DNA of 64,000 bases from the NCBI GenBank assembly GCA_964556135.1, contig CAZKUY010000001.1:114750-178749 (forward strand), read 5' to 3'. The notes under the pieces are model-generated. The model saw only the letters and a program-made list of their open reading frames with translations, was not told the origin of the DNA and made no database searches. Made by a program: the position numbers and the translations under genes. Positions 30,842 to 52,500 of the stretch are shown here, in pieces. Source of the DNA: an uncultured Pseudomonadota bacterium. GTDB taxonomy: Bacteria; UBA10199; JADFYH01. Every line of letters begins with the position of its first letter. Position 1 is the stretch's first letter.

Positions 30842-30867
30842 CAACACTTTTGCTCACGGGGCGATAA
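30842..30867 (+). promoter_or_regulatory. CAAC-N16-CGATAA promoter-like motif (copy E)
   Basis: tAGCAAC at 30840-30845 and CGATAA at 30862-30867, exactly 16 nt apart, 77 nt upstream of the ATG at 30944. Confidence 0.6.
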
Positions 30868-30943
30868 AGATCATCCCAGGGGAAAGATAGCTCTATAACC
30901 CTTAAAGGATTCTGCAAATTCACAAGAATCCAGGAGCTTTCTC

Positions 30944-31606
30944 ATGGGCGCACCCCAGGTAACAGGTACAACACACAACAGTCCTATCGATCTTAATATC
31001 TGCCAGGCTTACAGTAGCTATTTCAGGGCAGCACCTTCAGAAATAACAGAATGTAGCAAAACGGATTGCAGCTGGGACGATGGTCAAAATTCTCATTGCG
31101 GCTATCGTGCTGTGGTGAATGGAAGAAGTCGTGAGTTTTTCTTTCCCACAAAGGGTAGGTCCGAAATTCAGGCTGTGAGGTCCCCCTTATTTGATCCAAT
31201 CGATATGATGGGAGGCGGCGGTTTTTTCGCCAAACTGGGTACGAAGTTCGTTGGCAGAAAAGTCGTGGTGGCTGGAGTGGATCATATTCCTAATTACACG
31301 ATCATGCCTCTTATCCGTACTATTTCGACTACCACTGTAGATAATGCCCTCGATGCTCAAAGAGTGGCCAAATCTTTACGTTGGTTAATTGTTGCCACCC
31401 TGGACCAACATGGCTTAACCAGAAGTTTTGTAAATGAAGTGACGAAGCGCACCAGTTATGGAGTTCAAAAGTCGCATGTATTTTCCTACATGATGTTTGG
31501 CAAGCTTACAGGGCAAGGACCTATAATAGATTCAGTGCACGAGAGAATGGTGATCAATGCCATTATGGATGTGGGTCGAGAAATGTTTTTGAAGATATCA
31601 TGGTGA
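30944..31606 (+). CDS. hypothetical protein (220 aa)
   Basis: AGGAG RBS 8 nt upstream. Polar Thr/Ser-rich N-terminus, GGGG patch. No family recognised. Confidence 0.5.
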   Translation: MGAPQVTGTTHNSPIDLNICQAYSSYFRAAPSEITECSKTDCSWDDGQNSHCGYRAVVNGRSREFFFPTKGRSEIQAVRSPLFDPIDMMGGGGFFAKLGTKFVGRKVVVAGVDHIPNYTIMPLIRTISTTTVDNALDAQRVAKSLRWLIVATLDQHGLTRSFVNEVTKRTSYGVQKSHVFSYMMFGKLTGQGPIIDSVHERMVINAIMDVGREMFLKISW

Positions 31607-31619
31607 TATCTCGACCTGA

Positions 31620-32105
31620 TTACGGCATGATTCTTAGGCTACAAAAATGTGCTAAGGATAGCATTTGATTCTTATCAGGCGTAATATTTTCACCCTTAAA
31701 GATGCTTACTGCCAAACGGCGTACATAGCTCATATTGCTTGGAATTCTCGATGGATCGCAATCTGGAGTTTCTGGAGTTGTTTTGTTTGTAGTATGGAAG
31801 TTTGCTATAAACTGTTTGGCTTTTTCGATACTATTTGGAAGGTGTGGGGTGCATTTTTCAGTGGTAACTATGTTGACCTTATCGATTCCGATTGCAATGC
31901 TCCTGAGTAAGAGGCTTGCATCTCGGCGTTTTAGTGCGTTTTCTCTTGTGTCAGGCTTTCCTAGAAGTTTTGTTTCGTAAAATTTAATAACTTCGGGATA
32001 ACCTGTACTGAAGTGTTCTGCAGTTTCTCTGATGACACATTCTTGGTAGGCATTCACATTATCATGCGAGAGAGCAGTGGGTTTTGGCGTCATGACTTTC
32101 TCCAA
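31620..32105 (-). CDS. hypothetical protein (161 aa)
   Basis: Long ORF convergent with the preceding gene (13-nt gap). No family recognised. Confidence 0.45.
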   Translation of the reverse strand: MEKVMTPKPTALSHDNVNAYQECVIRETAEHFSTGYPEVIKFYETKLLGKPDTRENALKRRDASLLLRSIAIGIDKVNIVTTEKCTPHLPNSIEKAKQFIANFHTTNKTTPETPDCDPSRIPSNMSYVRRLAVSIFKGENITPDKNQMLSLAHFCSLRIMP

Positions 32106-32272
32106 TCCTGTAACTAGAACTATTTCTAGTAAACTACTTACATGAGCAAGTAATGTGCCATCTGTGCACGGATTTTTATTGAGTTATAACAAGGACTTAT
32201 GAGGCATGGCCTCAGTATGAGTAGGAGTAGAGTTCTTTAATGTGCCAAATGGGTACATTAAAAAGAAGGCCT

Positions 32273-33466
32273 TTACAAGCTTGTGGCGGCTGCATTCGCC
32301 GATGCCCAAGCCCATTGAAAGTTGAAGCCGCCCAGCCATCCTGTGACATCCACGCATTCTCCAATGAAGTATAAGCCGGGGACTTTTTTGCTTTCCATGG
32401 TCTGAGAGGAAAGTTCATTCGTATCGATGCCTCCGCAAGTTACTTCTGCTTTTGTGTAGCCTTCCTCACCGGCGGGGGCAATTTCCCAATTTTTGAAAGT
32501 TTGAGCGATTTTTGATAGCTCGAGATCAGCAGTTTGAAAAATAGGGCTCGATAAAAGTCTGTGTTTATCAAACCAAATTTCTAAAAAGCGCTTAGGAAAA
32601 AATTGAGCGAGTATATTTTTGACTTCAGCTCTATTGCCTAGATTTTTTTCGCGAAGTAAAAAATCTTCAAGATTGAAATCAGGAAGTAAATGGATGCGAA
32701 TTTTTTCGCCCGCTTTCCAATACGAGGAAATCTGCAAAATGGCCGGTCCGCTCAGTCCTTTGTGAGTAAAAAGAATATTTTCTCGGAAGGATTTTTTCCC
32801 AAAGGAAACAACGGCATCTAAGGAAACTCCGCTGAGCTCCCCGTAAGTTTTGGAGTTTTGCACTTTCCAAAGCAGAGGAACGAGACCCGGTCGAACTTCT
32901 AGAACTTTAATTTTAAATTGTTCGGCAATTTCATAAGCGAAAGGAGTTGCACCCAAGTTGGGGAAGGACAGACCTCCGCTAGCAATGATGAGATGAGACG
33001 AAGTGAAAGCTCCCATCGATGTGTCGATTCTAAATCGTAGGGGCGATGCATGTATCGCCCCCAGCGAATTGATTTTGCAATTTGTTAAAATATGAACGCC
33101 CGCAAGTTCACATTCTCTCAAAAGTAACTGAGTGATTTGCTTTGCGGAAGTTTCGCAGAATAATTGTCCTAATTTTTTTTCGAAATAAGGGATTTCATAT
33201 TTTTCGATGAGATCAATGAAATCTTGAGGTGAATAACGCGCTAAGGCAGATTTGCAAAAGTGGGGATTTTCGGAAAGAAAGTTTTCTGGCTTCGTGTCCG
33301 TGTTGGTAAAATTACAGCGACCGCCTCCCGAAATGAGGATTTTTTTACCGACTCGATCATTGTGCTCTAAAAGTAAAACCTTTTTACCACGATGACCTGC
33401 AATCTGTGCGCACATCAGCCCTGCAGCACCGCCGCCAATAATGATGACATCGTATTCCTTCGACAT
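32273..33466 (-). CDS. HI0933/BaiN-family flavoprotein (NAD(P)/FAD-dependent oxidoreductase)
   Basis: DVIIIGGGAAGLMCA, SGGGRCNFTN and C-terminal GGFNFQWAW motifs. Confidence 0.85.
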   Translation of the reverse strand: MSKEYDVIIIGGGAAGLMCAQIAGHRGKKVLLLEHNDRVGKKILISGGGRCNFTNTDTKPENFLSENPHFCKSALARYSPQDFIDLIEKYEIPYFEKKLGQLFCETSAKQITQLLLRECELAGVHILTNCKINSLGAIHASPLRFRIDTSMGAFTSSHLIIASGGLSFPNLGATPFAYEIAEQFKIKVLEVRPGLVPLLWKVQNSKTYGELSGVSLDAVVSFGKKSFRENILFTHKGLSGPAILQISSYWKAGEKIRIHLLPDFNLEDFLLREKNLGNRAEVKNILAQFFPKRFLEIWFDKHRLLSSPIFQTADLELSKIAQTFKNWEIAPAGEEGYTKAEVTCGGIDTNELSSQTMESKKVPGLYFIGECVDVTGWLGGFNFQWAWASANAAATSL

Positions 33467-34164
33467 TAGCGACGCTTACCCATAATATTTAAGAGGCTTA
33501 GGAAAAGATTGATGAAATCGAGGTAGAGTGTGAGAGCACCATAGATAGCGGGTTTTTCACTTCCGCCTACTTCAGGATTTGCCAAAGCGATTTGCTTGAG
33601 CTTTTGAGTATCATAAGCGGTGAGTCCAACAAAAATAATCACGCCAGCGAAAGAAATCGCCAAGCTCATGGCGCTACTCTTGATAAAGAAGTTCACGAGC
33701 ATCGCTAAAACCATTCCAAGTAAAGCCATAAAAAGAAAACTACCCCATGAAGTAAGGTCTTTTTTGGTGATGTAACCATAAGCGCTCATGCCTGCAAACA
33801 TGCCACCGGTCAGAAAGAAGACTTGTCCGATCGATGAAAGGGTATAGGCGAGGAAAATAACGGACAAAGTCAAACCATTGAGAGCTGAATATGCAACGAA
33901 CATGGCTCCTGCGACAGCCGTGGAAACTCGAGCAGCCATAAAACTCATCGCCATGACCAACACTAATTCCGCAATAATCAAACCGGTAAACATGTTTCGG
34001 TTCATGATAAAGGTTTGGACTAAACTAGGAGTGTTTGCGACATGCCATGAAACGATGCCGGTAAGGACAAGGCCTCCGCACATCCAAATATATACTTTTT
34101 GAAGGAATTCATTGACGATGCTACGTTCTGAAATTCCGGTGAAAGGTCGGCTTTGAATATCCAT
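33466..34164 (-). CDS. Bax inhibitor-1/YccA family membrane protein
   Basis: Start chosen at MDIQSRPF (ATG 34164, AAGGAG RBS). Seven hydrophobic helices. C-terminal LYLDFINLFLSLLNIMG motif. Confidence 0.85.
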   Translation of the reverse strand: MDIQSRPFTGISERSIVNEFLQKVYIWMCGGLVLTGIVSWHVANTPSLVQTFIMNRNMFTGLIIAELVLVMAMSFMAARVSTAVAGAMFVAYSALNGLTLSVIFLAYTLSSIGQVFFLTGGMFAGMSAYGYITKKDLTSWGSFLFMALLGMVLAMLVNFFIKSSAMSLAISFAGVIIFVGLTAYDTQKLKQIALANPEVGGSEKPAIYGALTLYLDFINLFLSLLNIMGKRR

Positions 34165-34174
34165 TATATTCTCC

Positions 34175-34474
34175 TTACTGTATTTTAACTTTAATGCATT
34201 CTGCGGGGGGTTCCTTACCTCGCTCGCGCATGTAAGATGATAAATCATCCAGCGATGAGTAGCAATTCAGGTTATTTTGGGCCGCTCTCAGCTTGCAGTA
34301 AAGATCAGTATCATTATCGATCATTTTTGCCTTATCACAGCAACGGACAAACCTATCACAATGCGGTCCTTTCGGTGGCCACAAATTGACTCCTCCAACC
34401 AGGACTTGAGTACTGCTTTGTGCAAAGAGAGAAGGGGAGACTAACAAAAAGCTCAGAAGAATGATTTTACGCAT
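34175..34474 (-). CDS. small secreted Cys-rich protein (99 aa)
   Basis: Signal peptide MRKIILLSFLLVSPSLFA-Q. Six Cys in the mature part. Confidence 0.5.
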   Translation of the reverse strand: MRKIILLSFLLVSPSLFAQSSTQVLVGGVNLWPPKGPHCDRFVRCCDKAKMIDNDTDLYCKLRAAQNNLNCYSSLDDLSSYMRERGKEPPAECIKVKIQ

Positions 34475-34556
34475 TCCTCAGCTCTATAGTAAAAATGCAT
34501 TGAATGGAAAGCTTTATTGAAGCGTGTACATAAAGTAGCGAAACAAATTTATCTGA

Positions 34557-34582
34557 CAACCTTTTTTCGATACTCGCGATTA
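34557..34582 (+). promoter_or_regulatory. CAAC-N16-CGATTA promoter-like motif (copy A)
   Basis: CAAC at 34557-34560 and CGATTA at 34577-34582, 16-nt spacer, 33 nt upstream of TTG 34616 (45 nt upstream of ATG 34628). Confidence 0.55.
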
Positions 34583-34615
34583 GGAATTATCCTTTTTACG
34601 TCAATTTAGTTTTTT

Positions 34616-37600
34616 TTGGGGCAACTTATGACTCTTGCGACAGGAAATTCTTCCTCATTATTACAGCGCAGATTTTCACAAGCTCAAGCTCCAAGTTTAA
34701 GTGCCGCCCAGCTTGAGATGGATGCGCTGCAAGCCCAACTTCAGACAGAAGCCGGAAACTTTTCCAACCTTCTCGCCATGGCGGGGGGAGGTCTAGCTTA
34801 TAAAGTCGCGCGTTCAGGTTTCCTATCGATCGGTTCCCATCGTGCTTTAGCCGTAATGGGAGGGCTTGCTACGGAAGTGTCCGCTTTTCGGGCGGCGACG
34901 AATGGCTTTGCGAACTTACGAGGTGAAAGACCTCATGAAAATATTTTTGATGCGAAAGCTTGGTTTGGTACTTTCATGAGTTTTGGAGTGCTGAAAGGGG
35001 CGGGACGGCTTGCGCAAGGCCAATCCGCTTTCTTGGCGCATGGCTTTCAGTCTTCAGCGATGGTGGCTGGCAATCAACTCACTTATCATATGGGGCTTAC
35101 CCACGCCCCTGAGGGCAGCTTGTTGCAGCAGCTCATTCATGCAGAAGTGACGAACATGGCGATGATCGGAGGGAATGCGCTGTTAGGGTCGGCGACTGGT
35201 CATTCCTTGGCCTTCTTGGAAAAAAGCTTCGAGTTAAGATCGAGTGCATTCCAAAAAGGGGCTCGCACCTTCAATGCCTTGCCGGCCATGCATCAAAATG
35301 AAATCTTGCAGAGCTTTAAAGACAGTTCCTTGCAAGCAAAACTAAATCCGCTTTTTGAAAAAATCCGCGCAGGTGAATCTGGGCAGCAAGTGGCAAAAGC
35401 TTTGGAGGCCGCAAACATCACTCTAGAAGATGTCGTGGTATACACCGATTTTTCAAATCCCGAGTATGCAAAAAACAATTACGGACGAACGCTTCTCCAT
35501 CGGGATTCCCACTTAGAAGCCCTGGTTTTAGGTTGGAGACCTGGACAACACACGCGTGCTCATGACCATCGCGCCGCGGATGGTTCGCCGGTGAATGTAG
35601 TGGAAACGGCAGTACAAGGGAATGCCGGGGAAATCATCTACGCAAATGAGGGAGCCCGTTGGCGAGAAGTGGAGAGAGTGGTCCAAAAGCCAGGTCAAGT
35701 GATGTCTGGGGGCAAAGACCTTTATCATCTGATCTTCAATGCCGGCGATGGCAACATGATTAGCCTTCATTTATATTGGCCTCCGCTGGATTTGAGTCGT
35801 GGAACTTATCAAGAGTTTGATCCCTGGGCGAGACCGATTTCACTTTCGGATCGAGCGAGAAATTTGGAAATGCCGGGGCCTGCGCAAGTATCGAATTGGA
35901 TTCGCGAACTTCAAGCGAAGGGCGTTGACGATATTATTAATTTAGGAATGGGGCAAAATGGATTTCCACCTGAAGTGCACATTCGGGAAGCTGCGGCCAA
36001 TCAAGCTTTGAACAAGCCTGCCACTTACGGTGCGGTGCAAGGGCAGCCCGAGTTGATCACGTCCATCCGCGAGAAATATCAACGCGATCATGGGGTGAGG
36101 TACAGCGATCAAGAAGTCGTAGTAAGTAATGGCGGAAAATCGTCTCTCACATTAGGCTGCCAAGCACTTTTTCAAAATGGAGAAACAGCGATCATTTTAG
36201 GACCTGCCTGGCCAAGTTACCGCGAGGAAGTGAGTTTAGCGGGAGGAAATCCCGTCATATTATTGGGTGAACGAGAAGCTCAATATCGCATTACCCCTGC
36301 GCAACTCGAACGAACGCTCGATGCACATCCAAATGCGAAGGCATTGATTCTCACCAATCCATCCAATCCCACAGGAATTCTTTATTCTCGAAGCGAGCTT
36401 AAAGCATTTGGTGCTATTGCTGAAAAAAGAGATCTCATTGTGATCGCGGATGAAATTTATGATGGCCACACCTATCGAGGTGACTTTACTGCCTTTGCAT
36501 CACTGCCGAGAATGAGAAGCCGTACTTTGACGATGAACGGTGGCAGTAAAGTCTATTCATTGGCAGGCTGGCGAGTGACTTGGCTCGTCGGTCCTGAAGA
36601 GTTGATTCAAGCTGTGGTGCGCCTTCAAGCGCATGAAGCGTCGAATACCGATACTATGGCGCAAGCGGCATTGACCGCGGCTTTGCAAGGGGAGCAGGGA
36701 TTTATTCGTCGGCAGGTGAGCGAGTTTGAAGCACGTGCAAAACGAATCGTGGCACGTTTGAATGAAATGGAATTACACACGGCCATGCCAGAAGCGGCCT
36801 TCTACGCTTTTGCCGATGCAAGAAAATATTTAAATACGGTGACGCCTGAGGGTTTGCACATCCGAACCGACATCGAGCTCGCGCGCTATCTACTTGAAAA
36901 AGCCCATGTCGCGGTGGTGCCAGGCACTTATTTTTTTGCGCCTGGAAATTTTAGGCTCGCCTTTGGTGGCGCAGAAATTCCTACGATTGAAAGGGCGATG
37001 GATAGAATGGAAGTCGCCCTCAAAGCTTTAAGGCAAAGTGAATTGCCTCCTGAAAGTCCTCCGGCTGCTGCTATAGGAATTGCGGGTGCTGCAGAAAGCA
37101 CAGCGATTGTAGCGACGGCGTTTTCGAGATTGAGGCAGCAAATCGCGCCTTACGCACTCCCAGGATTGGCCCTTGCTTCGATGTGGCAGGGGATGAGTTC
37201 GGGTTGGGCCTTGGTGGCGGGTTTAGGCGTGGCCTTAACGGTGGGCAATCCTTATGGCGAGCTCACGAGCAAAGCGGTGAAACCTTTATTGGCGGCTTCG
37301 CTCATTGGTTTGGGAGCGGGAATGGATTTGAATGCGGTTGCGCGCGCCGGTGCCCACGGAGTTTTTTACACTCTGGGCGGCATCACGATTACGTTGGGCT
37401 TAGGAAAGTTACTGAGTCTAGTGAGTGGTGTAGAGCGCAATCAACGTCGTTTAATTGATTGCGGTACGGCCATTTGCGGAGGAAGCGCGATCGCGGCTAT
37501 CACTCAAACTTTGGGCTTGAAACCTAAAGATCCTGCCGTCTCGGTTGCCTTAGGAACCGTATTTACCTTAAATAGTTTGGCGCTCTTTTTGTTTCCCATG

Positions 37601-38089
37601 ATTGGACATAAGTTGAATATGTCGCAGCACGATTTCGGTCTTTGGTCGGCCATGGCGATTCACGATACGAGTTCGGTAGTGGGCGCCGCGGCTGCCTATG
37701 GTCCCGAAGCCCTCGAAACGGCAACCACCGTAAAATTAGCGCGAGCACTTTGGATTATTCCTTTAGCCTTTGGCATGACTGCCTGGGACCGTCGAAACCA
37801 GGCTCGTTCCGAAAATCCAGCTTCTCGACCGGCTTTTCCAAAATTCATTTTAGGATTTTTAGCCGCTGCAGCCGCCACTACTTTTTTACCTGAGCTCAAA
37901 CCGGCGGGTGATTTCATTGCACATCGTTCGCAGGAAACCATGCGTCTCACCCTTTTTCTGCTTGGTGCCAATATGAATTTTCAATCCCTACGCAAAGTGG
38001 GTCCTAAACCTTTTTTACATGGAGCAGGACTTTGGATTGCAATGGGAGGATTAACGCTTTTAGGAATAGAGCAGGGTTGGATAGACTAA
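34616..38089 (+). CDS. four-module fusion protein: family N-module, cysteine dioxygenase-like cupin, class I/II aminotransferase, and YeiH/UPF0324 membrane transporter domain
   Basis: Uninterrupted 1157-codon ORF (alternative start ATG 34628). aa 1-215 is paralogous to ORFs at 43384, 50765 and 52562. aa ~286-392 has WRPGQHTRAHDH...LYHLIFN...SLHLYWPPLD (CDO-type cupin). aa ~425-805 has NPSNPTG, ADEIY and GGSKVYSLAGWR (PLP lysine). aa ~840-1157 has CGTAICGGSAIAA plus multiple TMs (YeiH family). Confidence 0.8.
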   Translation: MGQLMTLATGNSSSLLQRRFSQAQAPSLSAAQLEMDALQAQLQTEAGNFSNLLAMAGGGLAYKVARSGFLSIGSHRALAVMGGLATEVSAFRAATNGFANLRGERPHENIFDAKAWFGTFMSFGVLKGAGRLAQGQSAFLAHGFQSSAMVAGNQLTYHMGLTHAPEGSLLQQLIHAEVTNMAMIGGNALLGSATGHSLAFLEKSFELRSSAFQKGARTFNALPAMHQNEILQSFKDSSLQAKLNPLFEKIRAGESGQQVAKALEAANITLEDVVVYTDFSNPEYAKNNYGRTLLHRDSHLEALVLGWRPGQHTRAHDHRAADGSPVNVVETAVQGNAGEIIYANEGARWREVERVVQKPGQVMSGGKDLYHLIFNAGDGNMISLHLYWPPLDLSRGTYQEFDPWARPISLSDRARNLEMPGPAQVSNWIRELQAKGVDDIINLGMGQNGFPPEVHIREAAANQALNKPATYGAVQGQPELITSIREKYQRDHGVRYSDQEVVVSNGGKSSLTLGCQALFQNGETAIILGPAWPSYREEVSLAGGNPVILLGEREAQYRITPAQLERTLDAHPNAKALILTNPSNPTGILYSRSELKAFGAIAEKRDLIVIADEIYDGHTYRGDFTAFASLPRMRSRTLTMNGGSKVYSLAGWRVTWLVGPEELIQAVVRLQAHEASNTDTMAQAALTAALQGEQGFIRRQVSEFEARAKRIVARLNEMELHTAMPEAAFYAFADARKYLNTVTPEGLHIRTDIELARYLLEKAHVAVVPGTYFFAPGNFRLAFGGAEIPTIERAMDRMEVALKALRQSELPPESPPAAAIGIAGAAESTAIVATAFSRLRQQIAPYALPGLALASMWQGMSSGWALVAGLGVALTVGNPYGELTSKAVKPLLAASLIGLGAGMDLNAVARAGAHGVFYTLGGITITLGLGKLLSLVSGVERNQRRLIDCGTAICGGSAIAAITQTLGLKPKDPAVSVALGTVFTLNSLALFLFPMIGHKLNMSQHDFGLWSAMAIHDTSSVVGAAAAYGPEALETATTVKLARALWIIPLAFGMTAWDRRNQARSENPASRPAFPKFILGFLAAAAATTFLPELKPAGDFIAHRSQETMRLTLFLLGANMNFQSLRKVGPKPFLHGAGLWIAMGGLTLLGIEQGWID

Positions 38090-38619
38090 GAAGATTCGCC
38101 TATGAGCTGTCTAAACAAGCTCGACTCTCTCTTATAAAAACCTTCGGTATGAAAAGAGTCACCTAGTTTAAAATAAGTATAATCTAAATGGTGCAAGGCT
38201 TCGTGCAGCACAGTGCGTAGAAAACTGCGAAACGCTACTACCTGCACCCGCTTGGCGGTGCGCATCCATACGGTAATTAAATAGAGTCCTCTACGAGAAT
38301 CGCATTGATAAAGTCCGTGGAGTTCTCCCCAGTTTTTTGAGGGTCGTCGTTCTAAAACCTTTGCCTTCACGGGGGGGATGCCAAATAAGTGGCAGAGGTA
38401 AGTCAGAAACTGTTGCACCTTCTCTTCGGTTTTTATTTGATTGCCCGTGGCTAATGCTTCCACCATCTCTTTGAGTACGGATTGAAAGAGATCGACTCGG
38501 GGGAGATTCACATAAGAAATTTGATCGCTTTTCTCGTAAATTTTTTTCTGAAAAGGCTTCAGTCGTTTGTAGTAGGCGTAGGGCAATTTTTCTTCCTTAT
38601 TATTTATTTTCTGATTCAC
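38086..38619 (-). CDS. putative zinc metallopeptidase-like protein (HExxH)
   Basis: VLHEALHHLDY motif near the C-terminus. No signal peptide. Overlaps the upstream gene by 20 nt. Confidence 0.45.
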   Translation of the reverse strand: MNQKINNKEEKLPYAYYKRLKPFQKKIYEKSDQISYVNLPRVDLFQSVLKEMVEALATGNQIKTEEKVQQFLTYLCHLFGIPPVKAKVLERRPSKNWGELHGLYQCDSRRGLYLITVWMRTAKRVQVVAFRSFLRTVLHEALHHLDYTYFKLGDSFHTEGFYKRESSLFRQLIGESS

Positions 38620-40138: not shown

Positions 40139-40175
40139 TTTTTTCCATTTGAAAAAAAGACTATCGTCAAGAAAA

Positions 40176-40206: not shown

Positions 40207-40232
40207 ATTTCTCAATCACACATGAGGATATT

Positions 40233-43244: not shown

Positions 43245-43307
43245 GGGAGGCTTTAATATCCGTCACTTAGCTAGAATAAGTCAACATTCCCGTCCAAAAA
43301 GCGCTCG

Positions 43308-43333
43308 CAACTTTTTGAGTGTTTCGGCGATAA
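43308..43333 (+). promoter_or_regulatory. CAAC-N16-CGATAA promoter-like motif (copy B)
   Basis: GCAAC at 43307-43311 and CGATAA at 43328-43333, 16-nt spacer, 50 nt upstream of ATG 43384. Confidence 0.6.
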
Positions 43334-43383
43334 GTCTCAGAATTATTCATCACTAAAAAATGGGCATACGATGATGGTTTTAC

Positions 43384-46059
43384 ATGACTCGTGTATCGGC
43401 CAACCTGCGTTTTCTATCGGATGTTTCTTCCATTTCTGGGGGAAATATTGCTGCGTTTTCGCGGGCGCAATTGCAGAATGACGCGTCGAGTTATGGCCTG
43501 TCGGAAGAACTCAGTCATTGGCAGTCTTTGGGCGCGATGACTTTAGGAAGCTTATCCTATCGTTTGAGCGGTCTTGTCTTGCGCTCCGTGATGCCAGGGC
43601 TGAGTCGATATCTCGCTCCTGCTTTCGCATTAGGTTCTGAAGTGGCCACTTATGAACTGAGTCAACGTTCTCTTCTTTCTCTCTCAGATTCTACTTCTCA
43701 CTCAAATTTATTTTCCTGGTCTGGCACCGGCGGGATTGAAGAAGGTCTTCGAGTTTCCTACGTGAATTTTGCTTTTCTAAAAATAGGCGGACATTTTCAT
43801 TCCCGAAATTTATTTCTTCAACATCTCACTCAAGCCTCAGCGATGGTGGCAGGTCATGCGGCCACAGCGGGATTAGGTTGGGTGGAAGAAGAAAAAGGAA
43901 GTCTTTTCGAAAGATTAGTTCATGCGGAAGCAATGAATTTGCAAATGGGTATCGCGATGACGCTTCTCCATGGATTTTTACCTCAAGTCCGAAGCATAGA
44001 AAATGATGTGAACAGACGCATTCACGCCTTGCCGACCGCTGAAAATTTTCAATTTCGAAATAATGTTGAAAACTTAGCAATGAGATCTGCGAGAAGAACT
44101 CGCCAACCAGTGCCTCCTGGTGTTTTGCCAATGCCCGCCATTATTCAAGGTTATTTTTCCGAGCTTGAAAGTTTGGATGTTCAAGTCCGTTTGGGGGGAT
44201 TGAGAGCTTTGGGAATGTTGAAACCGGAAGCACGTATTAATGGAAGAATTTTGATGTGTTTGGGAGATCCTGAAGCGCAAGTTCGATTAGAAGCGATTAA
44301 AATTATGGATAGAAATGATCCTGTCCAATTACTCGAAGTGCTGAGACAACTTCAGGGGAAACCCGATCCAGACTCAGGTGTTCGCTTTTTGATAGAGACT
44401 GTGATTTGTAGAAAAGTGGTTCATTCCTCACCTTTGGTGCCCTTTGATCATACTGCGCAGGCCAAAGCTGAAAGGGACTTGCTGCAACTGATGCGTCCGA
44501 ATATGGGCCTTTTGATTGCGATGGGGGGAACTTGGGGGGCTGTTTTTGATGCTGCTTTTGCAAGAAGAACCGGCTCGGATGGGTTTTTAAGGAGAGAAAT
44601 AACAGATGGAACTTTAAGGAAGAAATTGCCTGCTCGAAGGGCGCCTGATCAAATTATCCCTGCCGATTTGGGTTTAAGTTCTTACCGAGGTCGTTACACT
44701 GTGGAAGCGTGGCGTAGACATGCTCGGCAAGCTCTTTCAGATGATAGGCGTCGTGAAGTGACAAGATGCCGGGAGCAAGTCGAAAAGAATTTAAGAGGGA
44801 AGCTCCATAAAGATAATTTATGGCTCCAAGGTTTAATGGAAACGGCCCTCATCGAAGAGCGTTACGGAACTTTGGAAGCTATCAGACAGAGAACCGTGAC
44901 CGATAGGATTGTGGAAGCGCTGAGATGTATTGAAGTGGAACAACGTTCGACTTTTTACGAAGTCATTCTCGAACAAATTTTGGATCATAGCCAAACTCAA
45001 GAGCAGGTGGGGGCTTTAGTAGAGCAATATTTTGTTTTTTGCAAAACATTGGGCCAGCGCAATTTTAAAGCTTCTTTAAGCGCAAGCTTCGATAGAAGAG
45101 TTTTATACGAAGTTGGAAGAGAGCTTCCCGAGGGAAGTCGCTGGTATTTTAATGAACAAGTTGAATTCGTGATAGATGAGGTTTTTGCAGGAATTTATGA
45201 AGAGTTTTTGCTTCGTGGAATCAGCGCAGAGGAAGCGGTCTTAGAAATGGAAACTCTTTTGCGAGAGGGTCGCTTGCACAGGGCTGTCATTCATCGTTGG
45301 GAGAATTGTAGGAGCTCTGCGGTCAGTCCTTTTGAAAGTGTGGATGAAAGACACCCTGTCGAGCAGTTTGATGCGGCCTGTAAACATTTGCTCGAGAAAA
45401 AAGACCTGCCGAGCCCTCGAGAAGATAGAGAGGCTTGCGTCGTGTTGGCAAGAATCTCTGCGGTCCATCCGGATCTTTTCCGCTCTGAGCATTTGGCTGT
45501 TTTATTGAAAATATTTGAAGAAAGAAGATTGTTTGAAATTAATGAGATTTTCCGAAATATATTGGATGCGACTTATTTTCCTGACACCGATCCTGTGATT
45601 GGGCTTCAAATTTTAAATGCGCACCTGGCCTATGAAATAGGAGACATCGAAACATTTCCAGTCGAATTTAAAGGGGGCGATTGTTTAGACCCAAGCCTAG
45701 AAGCCCGTGAGCGCGTGATCGATTTAGCCCGTCGCTACAAGGAATTTTTTTATATCAGGCATTTAACTATTAACTCTACTGCATGGCTTCAAAGTGGTAG
45801 CCAGCATGTATTAGATGGATGGCGTCGTGAATTGCTTTCAGTATTCGGGATGAGGGATGATGCCGGCGTCATTGCAGAGATGAATGCACAAGTCATTGCC
45901 AGACATCATGTTAATACTCATCCCTTAACTCAGGATTCAGAAAGTCGAAGTCGCTTATTGGAGGGAGAGGAAGTTCCTTTGCCATTGATACGAACGCCGC
46001 AAGCCATTCCCTTGGTGGGTCCCCCTAGAACTTCTTCAAAGCCTGGACCAAATCATTGA
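43384..46059 (+). CDS. family N-module protein with HEAT-like repeats and a long all-alpha C-terminal region (891 aa)
   Basis: aa 1-212 is paralogous to the other three family members. aa ~255-330 has VQVRLGGLRALG / EAQVRLEAIKIM HEAT-like repeats. The rest is unrecognised. Confidence 0.6.
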   Translation: MTRVSANLRFLSDVSSISGGNIAAFSRAQLQNDASSYGLSEELSHWQSLGAMTLGSLSYRLSGLVLRSVMPGLSRYLAPAFALGSEVATYELSQRSLLSLSDSTSHSNLFSWSGTGGIEEGLRVSYVNFAFLKIGGHFHSRNLFLQHLTQASAMVAGHAATAGLGWVEEEKGSLFERLVHAEAMNLQMGIAMTLLHGFLPQVRSIENDVNRRIHALPTAENFQFRNNVENLAMRSARRTRQPVPPGVLPMPAIIQGYFSELESLDVQVRLGGLRALGMLKPEARINGRILMCLGDPEAQVRLEAIKIMDRNDPVQLLEVLRQLQGKPDPDSGVRFLIETVICRKVVHSSPLVPFDHTAQAKAERDLLQLMRPNMGLLIAMGGTWGAVFDAAFARRTGSDGFLRREITDGTLRKKLPARRAPDQIIPADLGLSSYRGRYTVEAWRRHARQALSDDRRREVTRCREQVEKNLRGKLHKDNLWLQGLMETALIEERYGTLEAIRQRTVTDRIVEALRCIEVEQRSTFYEVILEQILDHSQTQEQVGALVEQYFVFCKTLGQRNFKASLSASFDRRVLYEVGRELPEGSRWYFNEQVEFVIDEVFAGIYEEFLLRGISAEEAVLEMETLLREGRLHRAVIHRWENCRSSAVSPFESVDERHPVEQFDAACKHLLEKKDLPSPREDREACVVLARISAVHPDLFRSEHLAVLLKIFEERRLFEINEIFRNILDATYFPDTDPVIGLQILNAHLAYEIGDIETFPVEFKGGDCLDPSLEARERVIDLARRYKEFFYIRHLTINSTAWLQSGSQHVLDGWRRELLSVFGMRDDAGVIAEMNAQVIARHHVNTHPLTQDSESRSRLLEGEEVPLPLIRTPQAIPLVGPPRTSSKPGPNH

Positions 46060-47395
46060 TGACCGACTGAGCATCGCCGTAGAGCATTCTCGTATTATCA
46101 CTGAAAAATAATTCATTTTCGATTCCCGCAAAGCCTTTGCCTTTCCCACGTTTGATGACGATGGCATTTTTAGATTTATCGACATCGAGGATGGGCATTC
46201 CGTAAATGGGGCTGGAAGCATTATTGCGAGCGGCTGGATTGACCACATCGTTCGCGCCAATGACTAAGCTGACATCCGTGCTCGGAAATTCTGCATTGAT
46301 TTCTTCAATATCAAATAAGCATTCGTAAGGCACACCGGACTCTGCGAGCAGCACATTCATGTGACCTGGCATGCGGCCAGCGACCGGATGAATTGCGAAT
46401 TTCACTTCGATTCCTTTTTTGCTGAGTAAATCGAGAAGTTCACGTACTTTGTGTTGGGCTTGAGCCACGGCCATTCCGTAGCCTGGAACAATGATCACTT
46501 TATTGGAATAGGCGAGAAGGATCGCAGCGTCTTCCAATCCAATTTCCTTCAGACTGCCTTTCATTTCGCTGGCGACAGTTTCTTGCCCTTTGCCGAAAGC
46601 TCCAAATAAAACATTTCGAATGGATCGATTCATGGCTTTGGCCATAAGTTGAGTAAGCAGCGTTCCCGCTGCACCGACCACGGTTCCCGCGATGATCATT
46701 GAATAGTTATCGAGCGCAAAACCTTCAAAACCCACAGCAAGCCCCGTAAAGGCATTGAAAAGAGAAATGACCACCGGCATGTCTCCGCCGCCAATGGGTA
46801 GGGTCATGAAAATTCCAAAACTAAAGGTCAGGACGAAAAAGAGAATGAGATATAAAGAATCTCCATGAGAAAAATATTCATAGCCGACATAAAAAGTCGC
46901 GGCCAAGAGGATTAAATTAAAAATATTCTGAAGCGGAAAGGTGATGGGTTTTTCTCGCATCCAACCTTGAAGTTTCAAAAATGCAATCAAGCTTCCGCTG
47001 AAAGCAATCACGCCAATGAGTCCGCCGATCATGCTCAAAAAAAGTAAAAGAGGTTGAGCGATGAAGATATTTGCTTCCGTCATTTCGATGAAGGCAATGG
47101 CGCCTGCGGCACCACCACCCATGCCGTTAAAGAGCGCAATCATTTGAGGCATGTCGGTCATGGGAATTTTTTTAGAAGCAATCCAAGATGGAATTACACC
47201 GAGCGCAATAGCCAATAAAATAAGGCCATAATTCGAAAGTCCGGGAGTAAAAAGAGTCACAATACTCGCTAAGAGCATTGCGGCGCCTGCCCAGACAATG
47301 CCGCTTTTGGCACTCAAGGGGGAACTCATTTTCTTCAAACCTAAGATGAAGAGTAAAGCGGTAATGAAATAAGTGCTTTGGATGAGGAGATTCAT
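46025..47395 (-). CDS. pntB: NAD(P) transhydrogenase subunit beta
   Basis: Start chosen at MNLLIQSTY (ATG 47395, 1 nt after the pntAB stop). C-terminal dIII motifs VPGYGMAVAQAQ and GANDVVNPAA. Confidence 0.9.
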   Translation of the reverse strand: MNLLIQSTYFITALLFILGLKKMSSPLSAKSGIVWAGAAMLLASIVTLFTPGLSNYGLILLAIALGVIPSWIASKKIPMTDMPQMIALFNGMGGGAAGAIAFIEMTEANIFIAQPLLLFLSMIGGLIGVIAFSGSLIAFLKLQGWMREKPITFPLQNIFNLILLAATFYVGYEYFSHGDSLYLILFFVLTFSFGIFMTLPIGGGDMPVVISLFNAFTGLAVGFEGFALDNYSMIIAGTVVGAAGTLLTQLMAKAMNRSIRNVLFGAFGKGQETVASEMKGSLKEIGLEDAAILLAYSNKVIIVPGYGMAVAQAQHKVRELLDLLSKKGIEVKFAIHPVAGRMPGHMNVLLAESGVPYECLFDIEEINAEFPSTDVSLVIGANDVVNPAARNNASSPIYGMPILDVDKSKNAIVIKRGKGKGFAGIENELFFSDNTRMLYGDAQSVINDLVQALKKF

Positions 47396-47396
47396 G

Positions 47397-47687
47397 TTAA
47401 TTTTTCTTCTTTGCCTCAAACATTTTAAGCATGCGAACGGTGACGGTATATCCGCCTGCCGCATTCATGGCGGACAAGAAAACTCCGAGAAAGCCAATGA
47501 TTTTATCCTGCAAAGTCACCGCATGTCCTAAACAAAGAATGGCACCGACGAGCACGATACCGTGGATGAAATTGGAGCCTGACATCAAAGGTGTGTGTAA
47601 AATGACCGGGACTTTTGCGATGACTTCATAGCCAGTGAAAATAGCGAGTAGAAAAATATACAGCGCGGGCCAAAGCGATTCGCTCAT
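47397..47687 (-). CDS. pntAB: NAD(P) transhydrogenase subunit alpha part 2
   Basis: 96-aa, three-TM protein between pntAA and pntB. 4-nt overlap with pntAA. Confidence 0.85.
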   Translation of the reverse strand: MSESLWPALYIFLLAIFTGYEVIAKVPVILHTPLMSGSNFIHGIVLVGAILCLGHAVTLQDKIIGFLGVFLSAMNAAGGYTVTVRMLKMFEAKKKN

Positions 47688-48766
47688 AAGAGTGTCCCCG
47701 AAATAATTTCATCTTGTAGGTTAAAGTCTAAAGTTTTTCCATTTTGAGTCAGATGATCGACAAAATTAAAAATATTTTTGGAATACATTTCAGAAGCATG
47801 AACCGGAAGTTCACTGGGTAAATTCACCGGACCAAAAATCCGAATTCCATTTTTCTCGATGATTTTTTTTGCTTGCGTGAGGCTGCAATTTCCACCGCTC
47901 TCGGCTGCTAAATCAATAATCAAAGAGCCAGGTTTCATTCGAAGAGCCACTTCTTCCGAAATGAGGAGTGGCGCCGGTTTTCCAGGGATTTGGGCAGTGG
48001 TGATCACGACATCCGAAAGGGCGATGTGTTCCGCGAGCTTTGCGGCATCTTGAGCCTTTTCTTCAGGACTGAGTTCGCGAGCGTAACCGCCTTGGGCCTC
48101 TGCATCGACGGAACTGCTGACAAAGCGAGCTCCCAAAGACTCCACTTGCTCACGTGCCGAAGCACGAACATCATAGCCTTCGACAATGGCACCTAATCGA
48201 CGCGCGGTCGCAATGGCTTGAAGGCCTGCAACGCCTGCACCCATCACTAAAACTTTTGCGGGTCGAATGGTACCCGCCGCGGTGGTCAACATTGGGAAAA
48301 AACGAGGGCAGAGCAGGGCCGCATGTAAGGCGGCGCGATACCCTGCGATGGTTCCTTGAGAAGAAAGGACATCCATAGACTGCGCGCGTGTCACACGAGG
48401 AATTTTTTCCATCGCGAAAACACGCTTCATTTTTTCTTTTAAAGCCTTAGCCTCTTCAGGAAAACGGTAAGGAAAGATCAAGCTGACCAAGCAAAGATCT
48501 GGATTTAAAAGTGCTATTTCCGAAAGGTTGGGCGCTTGAACTTTGAGGAGGATTTGGACATTTTGGAAAAGCGCTTGGGGGCTATCTTCGAGAGTCGCAC
48601 CGGCACTGAGGTATTGTTCGTCTGAAAAATAGCTTTCTTTGCCCGCTCCTCGCTGAACTGAAACCTCAAAACCTAAGTGGATGAGCCGTGTCACGGCATC
48701 GGGCACGAGGGCAACGCGTCTTTCCCCCTCATGGCTTTCTTTGGCAACTCCGATTCGAATAGGCAT
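47684..48766 (-). CDS. pntAA: NAD(P) transhydrogenase subunit alpha part 1 (alanine dehydrogenase-like dI)
   Basis: RVALVPD and VLVMGAGVAGLQAIATARRLGA motifs. Confidence 0.9.
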   Translation of the reverse strand: MPIRIGVAKESHEGERRVALVPDAVTRLIHLGFEVSVQRGAGKESYFSDEQYLSAGATLEDSPQALFQNVQILLKVQAPNLSEIALLNPDLCLVSLIFPYRFPEEAKALKEKMKRVFAMEKIPRVTRAQSMDVLSSQGTIAGYRAALHAALLCPRFFPMLTTAAGTIRPAKVLVMGAGVAGLQAIATARRLGAIVEGYDVRASAREQVESLGARFVSSSVDAEAQGGYARELSPEEKAQDAAKLAEHIALSDVVITTAQIPGKPAPLLISEEVALRMKPGSLIIDLAAESGGNCSLTQAKKIIEKNGIRIFGPVNLPSELPVHASEMYSKNIFNFVDHLTQNGKTLDFNLQDEIISGTLL

Positions 48767-48894
48767 GCCATTGAATTACCTCAAAAAAAATGAAATCCCA
48801 AATAAAAAGCTATTTCTCTTAAAACCCTTTTCCTTTGCATTTATCGTGAATTCCCATTAAGGGGGACGACCTAATCATTAAAGAAAGAGATGCT

Positions 48895-50703
48895 ATGAAA
48901 CCCAGTGCCCAAAATGAAAATATCCGCAATGTCGCCATTATCGCTCACGTCGATCATGGTAAAACTACCCTCGTTGATTTTATGCTTCGTCAAGCCGGTG
49001 TGTTCCGAGAAAATCAAGCGACCGAAGATCGAGTGATGGATAGTATGGACCTCGAACGCGAACGCGGAATTACGATTGCTTCCAAAAATTGCTCCGTTCA
49101 ATGGAAGGGTAAAAAGATCAACATCATTGATACCCCAGGCCATGCTGATTTCGGTGGTGAAGTGGAACGCGGATTGAAAATGGTCGATGGAGCGATTTTG
49201 CTTGTTGATTCTTCCGAAGGTCCTTTGCCTCAAACCCGTTTCGTTTTGAAAAAAGCTTTAGAAGCCCATCTCAAAATTATTGTTTTAGTGAATAAGATTG
49301 ATCGTAAAGATGCCCGTCCTCAGCAAGTTTTGAATGAAATTTACGATCTGTTTATTGATCTCGATGCAGATGAAAAACAAATTGAATTTCCAGTCCTTTA
49401 TGCCATCGGTCGTGAAGGAATTGCTCAGCTAAAATTAGAAGATAAGGGCACTCATTTAGGACCTTTACTCGACGCGATTGTCGATGAAGTTCCTCCTCCC
49501 AGTCATGACCCTGAAGAGCCCTTTCAAATGCTCGTTACCAACCTCGGTTACTCCGATTATTTAGGAAGACTTGCCATTGGTCGTGTGTTTCAAGGTTCTG
49601 CAAAAAAGAATGAAAGTTTAGTTTGCATTGGTAGAGATAACCTACCGAAAAACCTCAAAGTTTCTTGTCTTCAAGTTTATGAAGGTTTGAAGTTTCAAGA
49701 GGTCGAACAAGTCGATCCTGGCGAAATTGTTATTTTATCCGGAATTGAAAACGTAGAAATTGGGGATACCATTTGTACTTTGGCCCAGCCCAAAGCTTTA
49801 AAGCGCTTAGTGGTGGATGAACCTACCGTCGCGATGAAGTTCATGCCCAATAGTTCTCCTTTCTCAGGTCGAGAAGGAAAACTTGTTCAATCTCAACGTA
49901 TTTGGGATCGTCTTCAAAAGGAAACTTTACACAACGTGGCTTTAAGAGTGGAGTCGAGTTCGACCGGTGATAGTTTCATTGTCAAGGGTCGTGGTGAATT
50001 CCAAATGGCCATTTTGCTCGAGACCATGCGTCGCGAAGGTTACGAAGTTTGTGTCGGTCGCCCTCAAATTATTTTCAAAGAACAAGACGGTCAAAAGCTT
50101 GAGCCAATTGAGCACTTATTTGTTGATATTCCAGATGATTACATGGGTGTTGTTACAGAGAAACTTTCTCTTCGTCAGGGTCGCATGACTAATATGGTCA
50201 ATCATGGATCAGGTCGTATCCGGCTTGAATTTTCAGTGCCAGCCCGAGGCCTCATCGGCTACCGCAATGAATTCCTCACGGACACCAAAGGGGTGGGACT
50301 CATGAATTCTTATCTCTTAGGTTATGAGCCTTTACGGGGTGATATTAAAAGCCGCGTGAGTGGTTCTTTGGTCGCCGATCGACAGGGTGAATCCGTGGGT
50401 TATGGACTTTTCCATTTGGAACCTCGTGGTGTTTTATTCATTGATGCAGGTGTGCCGGTTTATGAAGGCATGATCGTCGGCGAACATAACCGCGACAATG
50501 ATTTGAACGTCAACGTCTGCCGAGAAAAGAAACTCAGCAACATGCGCGCGACTGGTAAAGACGAACACATCGTGCTCACCCCCATTACCCCCATGACCTT
50601 AGAACGAGCCATTGAATTCATTAAAGACGATGAATGGGTGGAAGTGACCCCCAAAAGCATCCGTCTTCGCAAAGTGACTTTGGCCTCGAATATGAGAAAG
50701 TAA
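48895..50703 (+). CDS. typA: translational GTPase TypA/BipA
   Basis: [33 protein letters not shown] and NKIDR motifs. Length 602 aa. Confidence 0.92.
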
Positions 50704-50709
50704 GTCTAG

Positions 50710-50735
50710 CAACTTTTGCTCTAAGCTCTCGATAA
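50710..50735 (+). promoter_or_regulatory. CAAC-N16-CGATAA promoter-like motif (copy C)
   Basis: tAGCAAC at 50708-50713 and CGATAA at 50730-50735, 16-nt spacer. Confidence 0.6.
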
Positions 50736-50797
50736 ACCTGCATATTATTACAGAGTTTTATGAGGTGGCTGCATGGGGTCTGCAGTGTTTATCGTTT

Positions 50798-52402
50798 GTG
50801 GCAAGGTTAAATCTATCATCTTCTATTTCAGCTCATAGTGAATCCTGGGTCAGTCGTTCCGGCTTAGAGATTGATGCCGCTGTGCAGGCTGTGACTACTG
50901 AAGCGCTGCGATTCGATTCTCTTTTGGCCATGATGGCTGGAGGGCTAGCTTACCGTTTTACGAAAGCGGCGAGTTTGTCTTGTCTATCTGGAGTTTTTTC
51001 TCCCGCCTTAGCTTTGACCGGAGAAGTTTTTACTTATGAGAGTGTCCATCGAGCCTTTGGACAAAATCAGAATTCCTTTTCAGAGGGCTTTCGCAGCTCT
51101 TTTCTTACTTTCGGGGTATTGAAAAGTTTTTCTCACATTTTTAAATCACAAAATATTTTTCTACGACATCTTAGTCAAGATGTCGGTGTGGTGCTGTCAG
51201 AAGAAGCAGCGTTTTGGTCTGGCTTTGGACTTAGCCCTAGTGGAAGTATTTTCCAAAGACTCTTACATGCGGAAAGCAGCAATCTTTGTTTAGGGATAGG
51301 AATGTATTGCGGACATTTATTCACAGGTGGAATTTTTCAAATTTGTGAAAATGCTTTGGCAAGATCCATACAAATTCACTCGAGCATGCAGCGAAATTCT
51401 CCTGCTTCGTTTCAATTTTTGGAAAGTGTTCGTGCCGAAGGAGGAAGTTTTACTTCCCTTTTAAGTGTAAGAGAGAAAAATTTTATTCAACAAAGTTTAG
51501 CAAAAATTGACGCTCGAGCTTTTCGCTCCGGCATCACGGCTGAACGTTTGGTGCAATATCGACAAGTCCTGCAAGAAATGGGTATCCAGCGTTCGTTTGT
51601 AGAAGGACGTCGGCGTTTGATCGAAATTTTGCGAGAAGATTGGATAGAAAAGTGCGAAGAAATTGGAATCGAAGTAAAAAGATTAAAGTTAAGTGAATAT
51701 GTAGCTTTGCTTCGCGCTTGCCGTCAAAGCGTGCCTAGTTGGGTCGATGCTTTTATAGTAGAAAGCGAAACCAATGCAGCCCTGGAAGTTATTTCACTCA
51801 CTTCTTACGGCTGTGGCAGTTTGGATCATGACGACGCCCTCTTAAGAATAGAGGAAGAGAATTATCTTGGTTTGCATTTTGGAGGATCCACGGATCAAAA
51901 ACTTATCACAGAGCCTCTGGGTTTAAGCCCCGGAGCCTTAAGTAATTCGATGGATGAGTTGCGCCCTCAAAATTCTGAATGGCGCAGATTCTTTCTGCCT
52001 GATGAATTGATTTTGCAATCAGCAGGGAGGGCTCATTCCCATATTGCCCCAGGACTCCATTCTTATGCAGAGTTCTGTAGTCTCGATGAAGTGCGGGAAT
52101 CACGAGCTGTGGATGCATGGGTGTTACATTTAAGTCCTGAAGAAAAAGTTCCATTTCACGATAGCAAATTTCATCCCTACCTTGCGATTGTTCACGATAT
52201 CCATATTCATTGGAACTATCTGAATCGCTTCAATCCTGAAGTGAGGATGGAAAAAGTAAGCGCATTTGATCATATAAAAAGAGAGCGAATTCATGTGAAT
52301 GAGAGACGAAGAACGATGCTCAGGGACTCAGATATTGCAGAAATATTGGAAGGCCTTTGGGATCACCATGAGGCACAAAGAACCCTAGAAAATAGCCGAT
52401 AG
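50798..52402 (+). CDS. family N-module protein, C/D subtype (tandem paralog 1)
   Basis: The ORF is open from GTG 50765. I prefer GTG 50798 (V-A-R-L...) because it is homologous in sequence and position to the only possible start of the paralog at 52562 (GTG GCA AGA CTG). Confidence 0.6.
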   Translation: MARLNLSSSISAHSESWVSRSGLEIDAAVQAVTTEALRFDSLLAMMAGGLAYRFTKAASLSCLSGVFSPALALTGEVFTYESVHRAFGQNQNSFSEGFRSSFLTFGVLKSFSHIFKSQNIFLRHLSQDVGVVLSEEAAFWSGFGLSPSGSIFQRLLHAESSNLCLGIGMYCGHLFTGGIFQICENALARSIQIHSSMQRNSPASFQFLESVRAEGGSFTSLLSVREKNFIQQSLAKIDARAFRSGITAERLVQYRQVLQEMGIQRSFVEGRRRLIEILREDWIEKCEEIGIEVKRLKLSEYVALLRACRQSVPSWVDAFIVESETNAALEVISLTSYGCGSLDHDDALLRIEEENYLGLHFGGSTDQKLITEPLGLSPGALSNSMDELRPQNSEWRRFFLPDELILQSAGRAHSHIAPGLHSYAEFCSLDEVRESRAVDAWVLHLSPEEKVPFHDSKFHPYLAIVHDIHIHWNYLNRFNPEVRMEKVSAFDHIKRERIHVNERRRTMLRDSDIAEILEGLWDHHEAQRTLENSR

Positions 52403-52474
52403 CATAGGATGACTAGGCCTGAGATCGAGTCTCAGAGCGGTTTAACCCCTCAGTGGTATAACAAAAGAGCTTAG

Positions 52475-52500
52475 CAACTACATTCCTAAGTGACCGATAA
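52475..52500 (+). promoter_or_regulatory. CAAC-N16-CGATAA promoter-like motif (copy D)
   Basis: tAGCAAC at 52473-52478 and CGATAA at 52495-52500, 16-nt spacer, 61 nt upstream of GTG 52562. Confidence 0.6.

Follow-up and report, generated by a model that had tools for sequence, protein, structure and literature searches.

Background

Promoter boxes read by alternative sigma factors are a known kind of genomic feature. The hrp box of Pseudomonas syringae and Erwinia, GGAACC-N15/16-CCACNNA, is read by HrpL, a sigma factor of the extracytoplasmic function (ECF) group; it is carried singly by many unrelated, horizontally mobile type III effector genes, and the box finds the members of the regulon. 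Sigma-28 factors have also been recruited to non-flagellar regulons in Chlamydia and Streptomyces. Here we describe a bipartite motif, CAAC-N16-CGATWA, that occurs five times in a stretch of 64,000 nucleotides (nt) of DNA from an uncultured Pseudomonadota bacterium (GenBank assembly GCA_964556135.1, contig CAZKUY010000001.1, positions 114,750 to 178,749), which we refer to as the window. Four copies precede genes (A, B, C and D) of one protein family, whose members begin with a common module that we call the N-module, and the fifth precedes a gene (E) whose product does not contain this module.

The closest described promoters belong to two classes of sigma factor. Published ECF (group 4) promoters have AAC in the -35 element, an adjoining T-tract (tGaAACnTTTt) and a -10 element of CGT or CGAC; the -35 element of sigma-V is GCAAAC, and CGAC is known for the autoregulatory promoter of sigma-X (PMC5758882). 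For sigma-28 of Escherichia coli the consensus is TAAAGTTT-N11-GCCGATAA, and single changes at positions 1, 3 or 5 of the -35 element abolish activity (PMC2859248). FliA-type promoters of Bdellovibrio (TTAAG-N16-CCGATA) make up 92 of 140 mapped attack-phase promoters, many of them at non-flagellar or uncharacterised genes (PMC3627812).

Five copies of the motif in the window

An exact scan of both strands of the window for CAAC-N16-CGATWA gave five matches, starting at positions 30842, 34557, 43308, 50710 and 52475, all of them on the + strand. Dinucleotide-preserving shuffles contained 0.15 matches on average and one at most, and none of 100 shuffles gave five. All five copies are intergenic and lie 29-76 nt before the next start codon on the + strand, and the motif is absent from the coding DNA of the window. 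Relaxing any single position of the -10 block, or using a spacer of 15 or 17 nt, added no intergenic site in the window. None of the roughly 55 other genes of the window has a strong copy; the motif is absent upstream of the fusA-like gene, bipA, clpA, pntAB and the remaining genes.

Each copy is an exact match on the + strand. Copies E (30839..30867), C (50707..50735) and D (52472..52500) read TAGCAAC-N16-CGATAA, copy B (43307..43333) reads GCAAC-N16-CGATAA, and copy A (34557..34582) reads (ga)CAAC-N16-CGATTA. Scored with a position weight matrix (PWM), they reach 21.6 (E), 21.3 (A), 25.0 (B), 25.9 (C) and 19.2 bits (D). The distance to the start codon is 76 nt for E, 50 nt for B and 61 nt for D; for A it is 33 nt to a TTG at 34616 or 45 nt to an ATG at 34628. 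Copy C starts 4 nt past the stop codon of bipA and stands 29 nt from a GTG at 50765, or 62 nt from the start if this is the GTG at 50798.

When the five upstream regions are aligned, identity is found only in (c)TAGCAAC(t)TTT and CGATAA, while spacers and flanks are unrelated, which argues that the motif has been kept by selection and is not the product of a recent duplication. An earlier note on this DNA, made from the sequence alone, had reported five copies of the motif, all intergenic, on the + strand and more frequent than chance would allow, and its count is borne out by the scan of both strands. The upstream TAG or GC extension is present as that note described it, and the duplicated flanking DNA that it had named as an argument against its proposal was not found, similarity being confined to the two motif blocks. 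Its distances of 33-77 nt to the start codon are essentially right, although copy C, at 29 nt, falls slightly outside them.

Conservation of the motif in distant genomes

The first three metagenomic homologues that we inspected carry TAGCAAC-N16-CGATAA (L083), CACAAC-N16-CGATAA (L084) and TAGCAAC-N16-CGATTT (L085) upstream; the called start of the gene in L085 is clearly too far downstream. For a broader comparison we used 58 metagenomic loci chosen solely by homology to the N-module protein. Their proteins are 29-72% identical to the query, the samples range from 40% to 58% in GC content, and the mean GC content of the loci is 56%. The reduced pattern AAC-N16-CGA is found upstream of 49 of the 54 family genes in this set, no more than 150 nt from the start in 47; we estimate that the background rate of these loci would give about 2 such matches. 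Motif and start codon are separated by a median of 42 nt. On the gene strand CAAC-N16-CGA occurs 89 times, as opposed to 17 times on the other strand, and with a spacer of 15 or 17 nt the bias towards the gene strand is small or absent.

A logo of 57 sites reads T..(a)GCAAC(T/C)TTT-N11-(g)CCGA(T/A)A(A/g). Conservation extends to positions that lay outside the pattern used for selection, namely G at -2 (43/57), C at -1 (52/57), T at +4 (52/57), the C before CGA (36/57) and the A after CGAW (41/57). The conserved columns are limited to the two motif blocks, apart from a weak peak of A 9 nt past the -10 hexamer, where a start site would be expected.

The same pattern of retained blocks in diverged surroundings is seen at individual genes. 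At an orthologue of gene E with 85% identity (L146) the motif is identical, and at one with 68% identity (L144/L145) GCAAC-N16-CGATAT is retained in an intergenic region that is mostly unalignable, with an unrelated spacer. The site in L146 that is orthologous to copy A reads GGCAAC-N16-CGAAGA and has a diverged spacer; in L144, a gene on the other strand that encodes a 978-amino acid (aa) fusion of N-module and aminotransferase has CGCAAC-N16-CGAATA about 30 nt upstream. In a metagenome-assembled genome (MAG), GCA_046346885.1, the motif stands before five genes, three of the family (2504, 1803 and 1703 aa) and two that are hypothetical and unrelated to it, and L011, a member of the same clade as the window (BipA 75% identical), has three high-scoring sites before non-family genes. 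As a control, 70-odd bipA loci from unrelated taxa contained only 3 pattern matches, which we judge to be about the level of chance. The proposal of the earlier note that the N-module genes and the module-less gene E belong to one regulon is thus supported, both by the site upstream of 49 of 54 family genes and by its retention at the E orthologue.

The comparison also bears on whether the motif has any function. It could be a product of chance, a leftover of duplicated or mobile flanking DNA that moved along with the paralogues, or a segment of a structured leader RNA, and one may point to the tandem paralogues C and D, which share some leader sequence including a hairpin, and to gene B and the pair C and D, which are presence/absence insertions relative to the syntenic locus L004. 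Against this, none of 100 shuffles reaches five copies, flanks and spacers cannot be aligned among the five copies, and the motif persists across the whole range of protein identity and GC content given above. We consider a non-functional motif very improbable and in effect refuted by these results. A riboswitch or other leader RNA was rejected as an explanation: the leaders have no common fold, and scans of the window found no Rfam family and no tRNA.

Several further sites in these loci are of interest in their own right. In L011, one of the three sites, a 25.5-bit copy at 10141 (+), falls within dnaG at a distance of 1.3 kb upstream of rpoD (11426), an arrangement reminiscent of internal alternative-sigma promoters from which principal sigma genes are expressed in other bacteria. 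In L081, from a MAG labelled Nitrospirales (BipA 65%), CACAAC-N16-CGATAA is found at 11916 (+), directly 3' of bipA as copy C is; it precedes a 489-aa open reading frame (ORF) with no detectable similarity to the family, and may be a chance match. Some of the non-family genes that carry the motif form small paralogous families of their own (L112 1767 and 8627; L120 3632 (-) and 893 (-)), one set having a conserved N-terminus with ...GDPxDPFRF... and another being diacylglycerol-kinase-like. Several of the motif-bearing non-family proteins have Gly-rich hydrophobic C-terminal tails; in general, the non-family targets are often either secreted or equipped with such tails.

A predicted promoter for an alternative sigma factor

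From these observations we infer that the motif is probably the -35/-10 pair of a promoter, and that a single dedicated alternative factor of the sigma-70 family, not the housekeeping sigma, reads it. The motif is asymmetric, its spacing is fixed, it is strictly oriented and lies 20-150 nt from start codons, it is absent at housekeeping genes, and it is conserved; it is for these reasons that we favour a promoter of this kind. A hexamer pair of the housekeeping type (TTGACA-N16-18-TATAAT) was found on the + strand in none of the five upstream regions. The view of the earlier note that the motif is a promoter for a non-housekeeping sigma factor therefore gains support from its above-chance frequency, its distant conservation and the lack of sigma-70-like pairs.

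The two blocks might instead be the half-sites of a transcription factor, one and a half helical turns apart, with the real promoter elsewhere in the intergenic region. Conservation shows that the motif is a functional cis-element and does not show which protein binds it, and a position 20-150 nt upstream of start codons would suit an operator too. The blocks, however, are neither direct nor inverted repeats of each other, the orientation is strict (89 versus 17), the spacing is fixed at 16 nt, and sequence and geometry together fit two known classes of sigma promoter. Nor could an alternative sigma-70-like promoter be detected in the five regions; copy C nearly fills the gap between bipA and gene C, leaving no room for a separate promoter. 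A transcription factor site is in our estimation improbable.

Some results weigh against a dedicated alternative sigma factor, or against its assignment to the ECF group. Five of the 54 family genes have no detectable site. The PWM speaks for the promoter, placing a site before 29 of 38 complete family ORFs as against 9 of 106 other ORFs of these loci, but its training on these very sites makes the figures partly circular; the count by regular expression (49/54) is independent of it. In the 64-kb window, the gene list and Pfam searches of selected ORFs revealed neither a sigma nor an anti-sigma gene. In the related loci, a crude phmmer search with the RpoD-like part of one family member (P0024), together with the gene tables, found only the rpoD of L011. 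The autoregulated operon of sigma and anti-sigma genes that would be expected for an ECF factor was seen neither in the window nor in the related loci. Finally, the core of the -10 element, CGA followed by (T/A)AA and preceded by (g)C, is closer to GCCGATAA than to the CGT of ECF promoters.

Were the predicted alternative sigma factor active, RNA polymerase would start about 7-9 nt past CGATAA. The factor would co-express a regulon consisting mostly of modular proteins, in which the new N-module of ~220 aa is joined to very diverse C-termini, and this regulon would also take in unrelated hypothetical, secreted or membrane proteins such as the product of gene E. Because every gene would have its own copy of the promoter, genes could be gained, lost or moved and still remain in the regulon.

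ECF and sigma-28 features of the predicted promoter

Of the possible classes of factor, the ECF type (group 4) is slightly favoured within the alternative-sigma reading, though we put this forward with reserve. We lean towards it because AAC after GC is invariant, a T-tract adjoins it, the distance from AAC to CG is strictly 16 nt, and individual sites adhere closely to the consensus. AAC is present in the -35 element of all five window copies and of 49 of the 54 fetched family genes. In the AAC -35 element, the T-tract, the 16 nt to the CG core and the close adherence to consensus, the motif is like the promoters of sigma-W, sigma-X, sigma-M and sigma-V of Bacillus subtilis (PMC5758882). It is unlike them in its -10 element, which is CGA(T/A)AA with a preferred upstream C where theirs is CGT(C/A). 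The regulons differ as well, the one proposed here being a huge modular protein family and those of B. subtilis serving envelope-stress functions, and no motif-bearing operon of ECF sigma and anti-sigma genes was found here in the window and related loci.

The same sites can be aligned with a sigma-28 promoter. CAAC-N16-CGA is equivalent to two octamers separated by 11 nt, which is the sigma-28 gap, and the -10 consensus here, (g)CCGA(T/A)AA, corresponds to the sigma-28 octamer GCCGATAA, which the -10 octamers of the window copies match at 5-7 of 8 positions. The consensus of the 57 sites, GCAACTTT-N11-GCCGATAA, agrees with TAAAGTTT-n11-GCCGATAA at 13 of 16 positions and has the same geometry. 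It is thus possible that the motif is a variant promoter of the group 3 factors (FliA/SigD/WhiG), read by a sigma-28 whose altered region 4 recognises GCAAC for TAAAG and which governs a large non-flagellar regulon; we hold this more tentatively. Such a promoter would be a sub-case of the alternative-sigma reading, differing only in the class of the factor.

Bdellovibrio FliA provides a precedent for a large non-flagellar regulon, with hundreds of non-flagellar, mostly uncharacterised target genes (PMC3627812), and the promoters of E. coli sigma-28 and B. bacteriovorus FliA share with the motif the arrangement of octamer-N11-octamer, CCGATAA, and a -35 element with an AA core and TTT (PMC2859248, PMC3627812). 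In a related MAG, moreover, an export gene of the SctU/FlhB type lies 1.3 kb from family genes. The -35 element, on the other hand, does not have the TAAA(GTTT) of sigma-28: GCAAC(T/C)TT replaces T1, A2 and G5 in nearly all sites, where the other promoters have TAAAG or TTAAG. Of the three altered positions, 1 and 5 are critical in E. coli (PMC2859248), and TAAA/TTAA is retained in both E. coli and Bdellovibrio (PMC2859248, PMC3627812). The G of the GC before CGA is weakly preferred, at 25 of 57 sites. Neither fliA nor flgM was seen in the window and related loci, where the motif also did not accompany any flagellin or chemotaxis gene, and the SctU/FlhB gene has no site upstream.

The earlier note had described the motif as the hallmark of ECF promoters while pointing to the likeness of CGATAA to the sigma-28 -10 element. 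Both likenesses hold, but 'hallmark' is too exclusive, as the geometry fits sigma-28 equally.

The SctU/FlhB-type gene belongs to GCA_046346885.1, where about 10 kb at most separates it from two family genes that carry the motif. Its scores exceed the curated thresholds for SctU as well as for FlhB, and it appears isolated from other genes of an export apparatus. A partner-switching pair, SpoIIE/HATPase_c_2 and STAS, is also found near family genes in L150; these observations concern L150 7597-8694 (-) and 21916-23927 (-).

Genes behind the motif

Gene A (34616..38089, +) encodes 1157 aa, or begins at 34628 if the likely ATG start is used, and matches a hidden Markov model (HMM) of the N-module with E = 2e-57. 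Pfam matches show that the N-module is followed by a cysteine dioxygenase-like domain, a class I/II aminotransferase and a YeiH-like (PF03601) membrane domain; this four-part fusion looks like a unit for cysteine or sulfinate catabolism and export. The combinations differ in close relatives: in L146 (4201-6537) the called gene encodes 778 aa, and the product has no aminotransferase Pfam match, and L144 (15194-18128, -) has the 978-aa N-module::aminotransferase gene. Gene B (43384..46059, +; 891 aa; E = 2e-68) has a weak C-terminal Pfam match to HEAT repeats.

Genes C (50765..52402, +; 545 aa; E = 2e-46) and D (52562..54229, +; 555 aa; E = 1e-47) are tandem paralogues with a common C-terminal domain that has no assigned function; they are about 40% identical (tblastn E = 4e-118). 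The family alignment suggests that the true start of gene C may be the GTG at 50798. Their leaders share a GC-rich hairpin followed by a run of T, flagged as terminator-like (50768-50786 and 52531-52551), which lies between the motif and the probable start codons and was not observed in the leaders of A, B and E. The hairpin could serve as an attenuator; the energy of its fold is not significant.

Gene E (30944..31606, +) encodes a hypothetical protein of 220 aa without the N-module. The N-module HMM, which was built without sequences from the window, matches A, B, C and D (E = 1e-46 to 1e-68) and does not match E, nor does E have a match in Pfam or NCBIfam. Only 3 proteins in 5.8 billion are related to it, one of them the window's own. 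The leader of gene E (30880-30895) contains GGGGAAAG(A/G)TAGCTC, which is conserved in the 68% orthologue (L144 about 9945-9965). This leader folds better than shuffled sequence (z = -2.3), and the other leaders have z-scores of +0.6 to -0.9.

Lineage and variable presence of the family genes

The lineage from which the window derives is uncultured and poorly placed. The GC content of the window is about 44%. Two MAGs deposited as 'uncultured Pseudomonadota bacterium' have a BipA with 91-92% identity to that of the window; identity is 75-83% for MAGs labelled 'Pseudomonadota', 'bacterium', 'Myxococcota bacterium' or 'Deltaproteobacteria bacterium CG11...', and 71% or less for everything else. 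These neighbours of BipA refute an affiliation with Chlamydiae, which the style of the sequence had suggested.

We compared gene order between the window (43245-46059 and 50704-54342) and the syntenic relative L004 (6946-6991 and 11808-11852), which has about 75% nucleotide identity. L004 has no gene B between the permease gene and pntB, and it has no genes C and D, the spacer between bipA and the PEMT gene being only 43 nt. Close relatives thus differ in which family genes they have, each such gene coming with a motif of its own, and the arrangement suggests that they may be gained and lost as promoter-plus-gene units.

The N-module protein family

The N-module is a helical module of ~220 aa at the N-terminus of A, B, C and D. 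A first, word-indexed protein search gave only 5 homologues, and it was an exhaustive HMMER search of 1.84 billion representative proteins that revealed the size of the family, with 938 clusters at E <= 1e-3 and 478 at E <= 1e-30; the family thus comprises at least 938 clusters at 50% identity. In the best 150 of the 938 matches the module is N-terminal, and total lengths range from 236 to 3930 aa.

Most C-termini in the 70 members that were scanned have no match at all. The remainder include PAS, GGDEF, histidine-kinase, Ser/Thr kinase, FHA and phosphatase domains, as well as helicase, LRV/HEAT, malic-enzyme, HPr and a partial RpoD-like sigma domain, and some other members are fused to biotin-carboxylase or PlsC-type acyltransferase domains. 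In the source databases the members are named 'hypothetical protein' or after the C-terminal enzyme alone. The sigma-like domain occurs in P0024, a metagenomic protein of 1084 aa that consists of an N-module, a partial RpoD/RpoS-like sigma segment and an amine-oxidase domain; the segment covers roughly region 2 onward, with no match past about residue 510.

The N-module itself has no match in Pfam or NCBIfam, and a sequence profile search of the PDB was negative. The AlphaFold prediction is a bundle of seven helices, the deeper of two models having a core pLDDT of 85-94, and neither model had a significant fold match in the PDB. An integral membrane anchor was considered and rejected, as Kyte-Doolittle analysis gave no classical transmembrane helix. 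A scan of the GTDB species representatives with family protein C detected no relative by 8-mer seeds; an alignment of the four N-module sequences had diverged too far to serve as the seed of such a genome scan.

Implications

Three things appear to be new: this consensus, its character intermediate between ECF and sigma-28 promoters, and its association, in a lineage without cultured members, with a protein family that is very large and undescribed. Searches of the literature gave no precedent, either for the motif or for a regulon of this kind.

The putative promoter box gives access, from sequence only, to a whole regulon of bacteria not yet brought into culture. Any gene with GCAACnTTT-N11-nCCGAWAA in front of it becomes a candidate for co-regulation, phylogenetic co-occurrence or autoregulation could point to the sigma factor, and the prediction can be tested by in vitro transcription. 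The box also flags a family of at least 938 clusters that has no relative in Pfam, NCBIfam or the PDB. With a consensus that stands between ECF and sigma-28, it bears on how promoter specificity evolves between group 3 and group 4 factors.

With its uniform N-module, hypervariable cargo, private promoters and presence/absence variation, and with the non-family targets described above, the regulon may be likened to a repertoire of effectors. It is like the HrpL regulon in that the family genes are variably present between close relatives, and in that a related MAG encodes an export protein of the SctU/FlhB type next to family genes. It is unlike the HrpL regulon in the sequence of the box, and in that many N-module proteins carry GGDEF, histidine kinase, PAS, biotin carboxylase or aminotransferase domains; secretion of the N-module proteins would be conjectural. 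Because many cargoes are ordinary bacterial cytoplasmic or signalling domains, and the product of gene A has a multi-pass membrane domain at its C-terminus, a tag for docking or localisation is at least as plausible as one for secretion.

A more far-reaching proposal, which we regard as doubtful, is that one dedicated sigma factor of hybrid ECF/sigma-28 specificity fires the whole N-module repertoire, the module being a common address tag in a new system for the delivery of effectors or cargo. The repertoire would then run to dozens or more proteins per genome and at least 938 clusters overall, and the cargoes would include kinases, diguanylate cyclases, acetyl-CoA-carboxylase-like enzymes, acyltransferases and aminotransferases. 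The tag might, for instance, direct proteins into a type III-like apparatus for export, or bring them to a single cellular structure or developmental compartment. If the module is indeed a targeting tag, the family would represent a new delivery or localisation system, and if the hybrid sigma factor exists as well, that delivery system would be recognisable by its promoter box and protein tag together.

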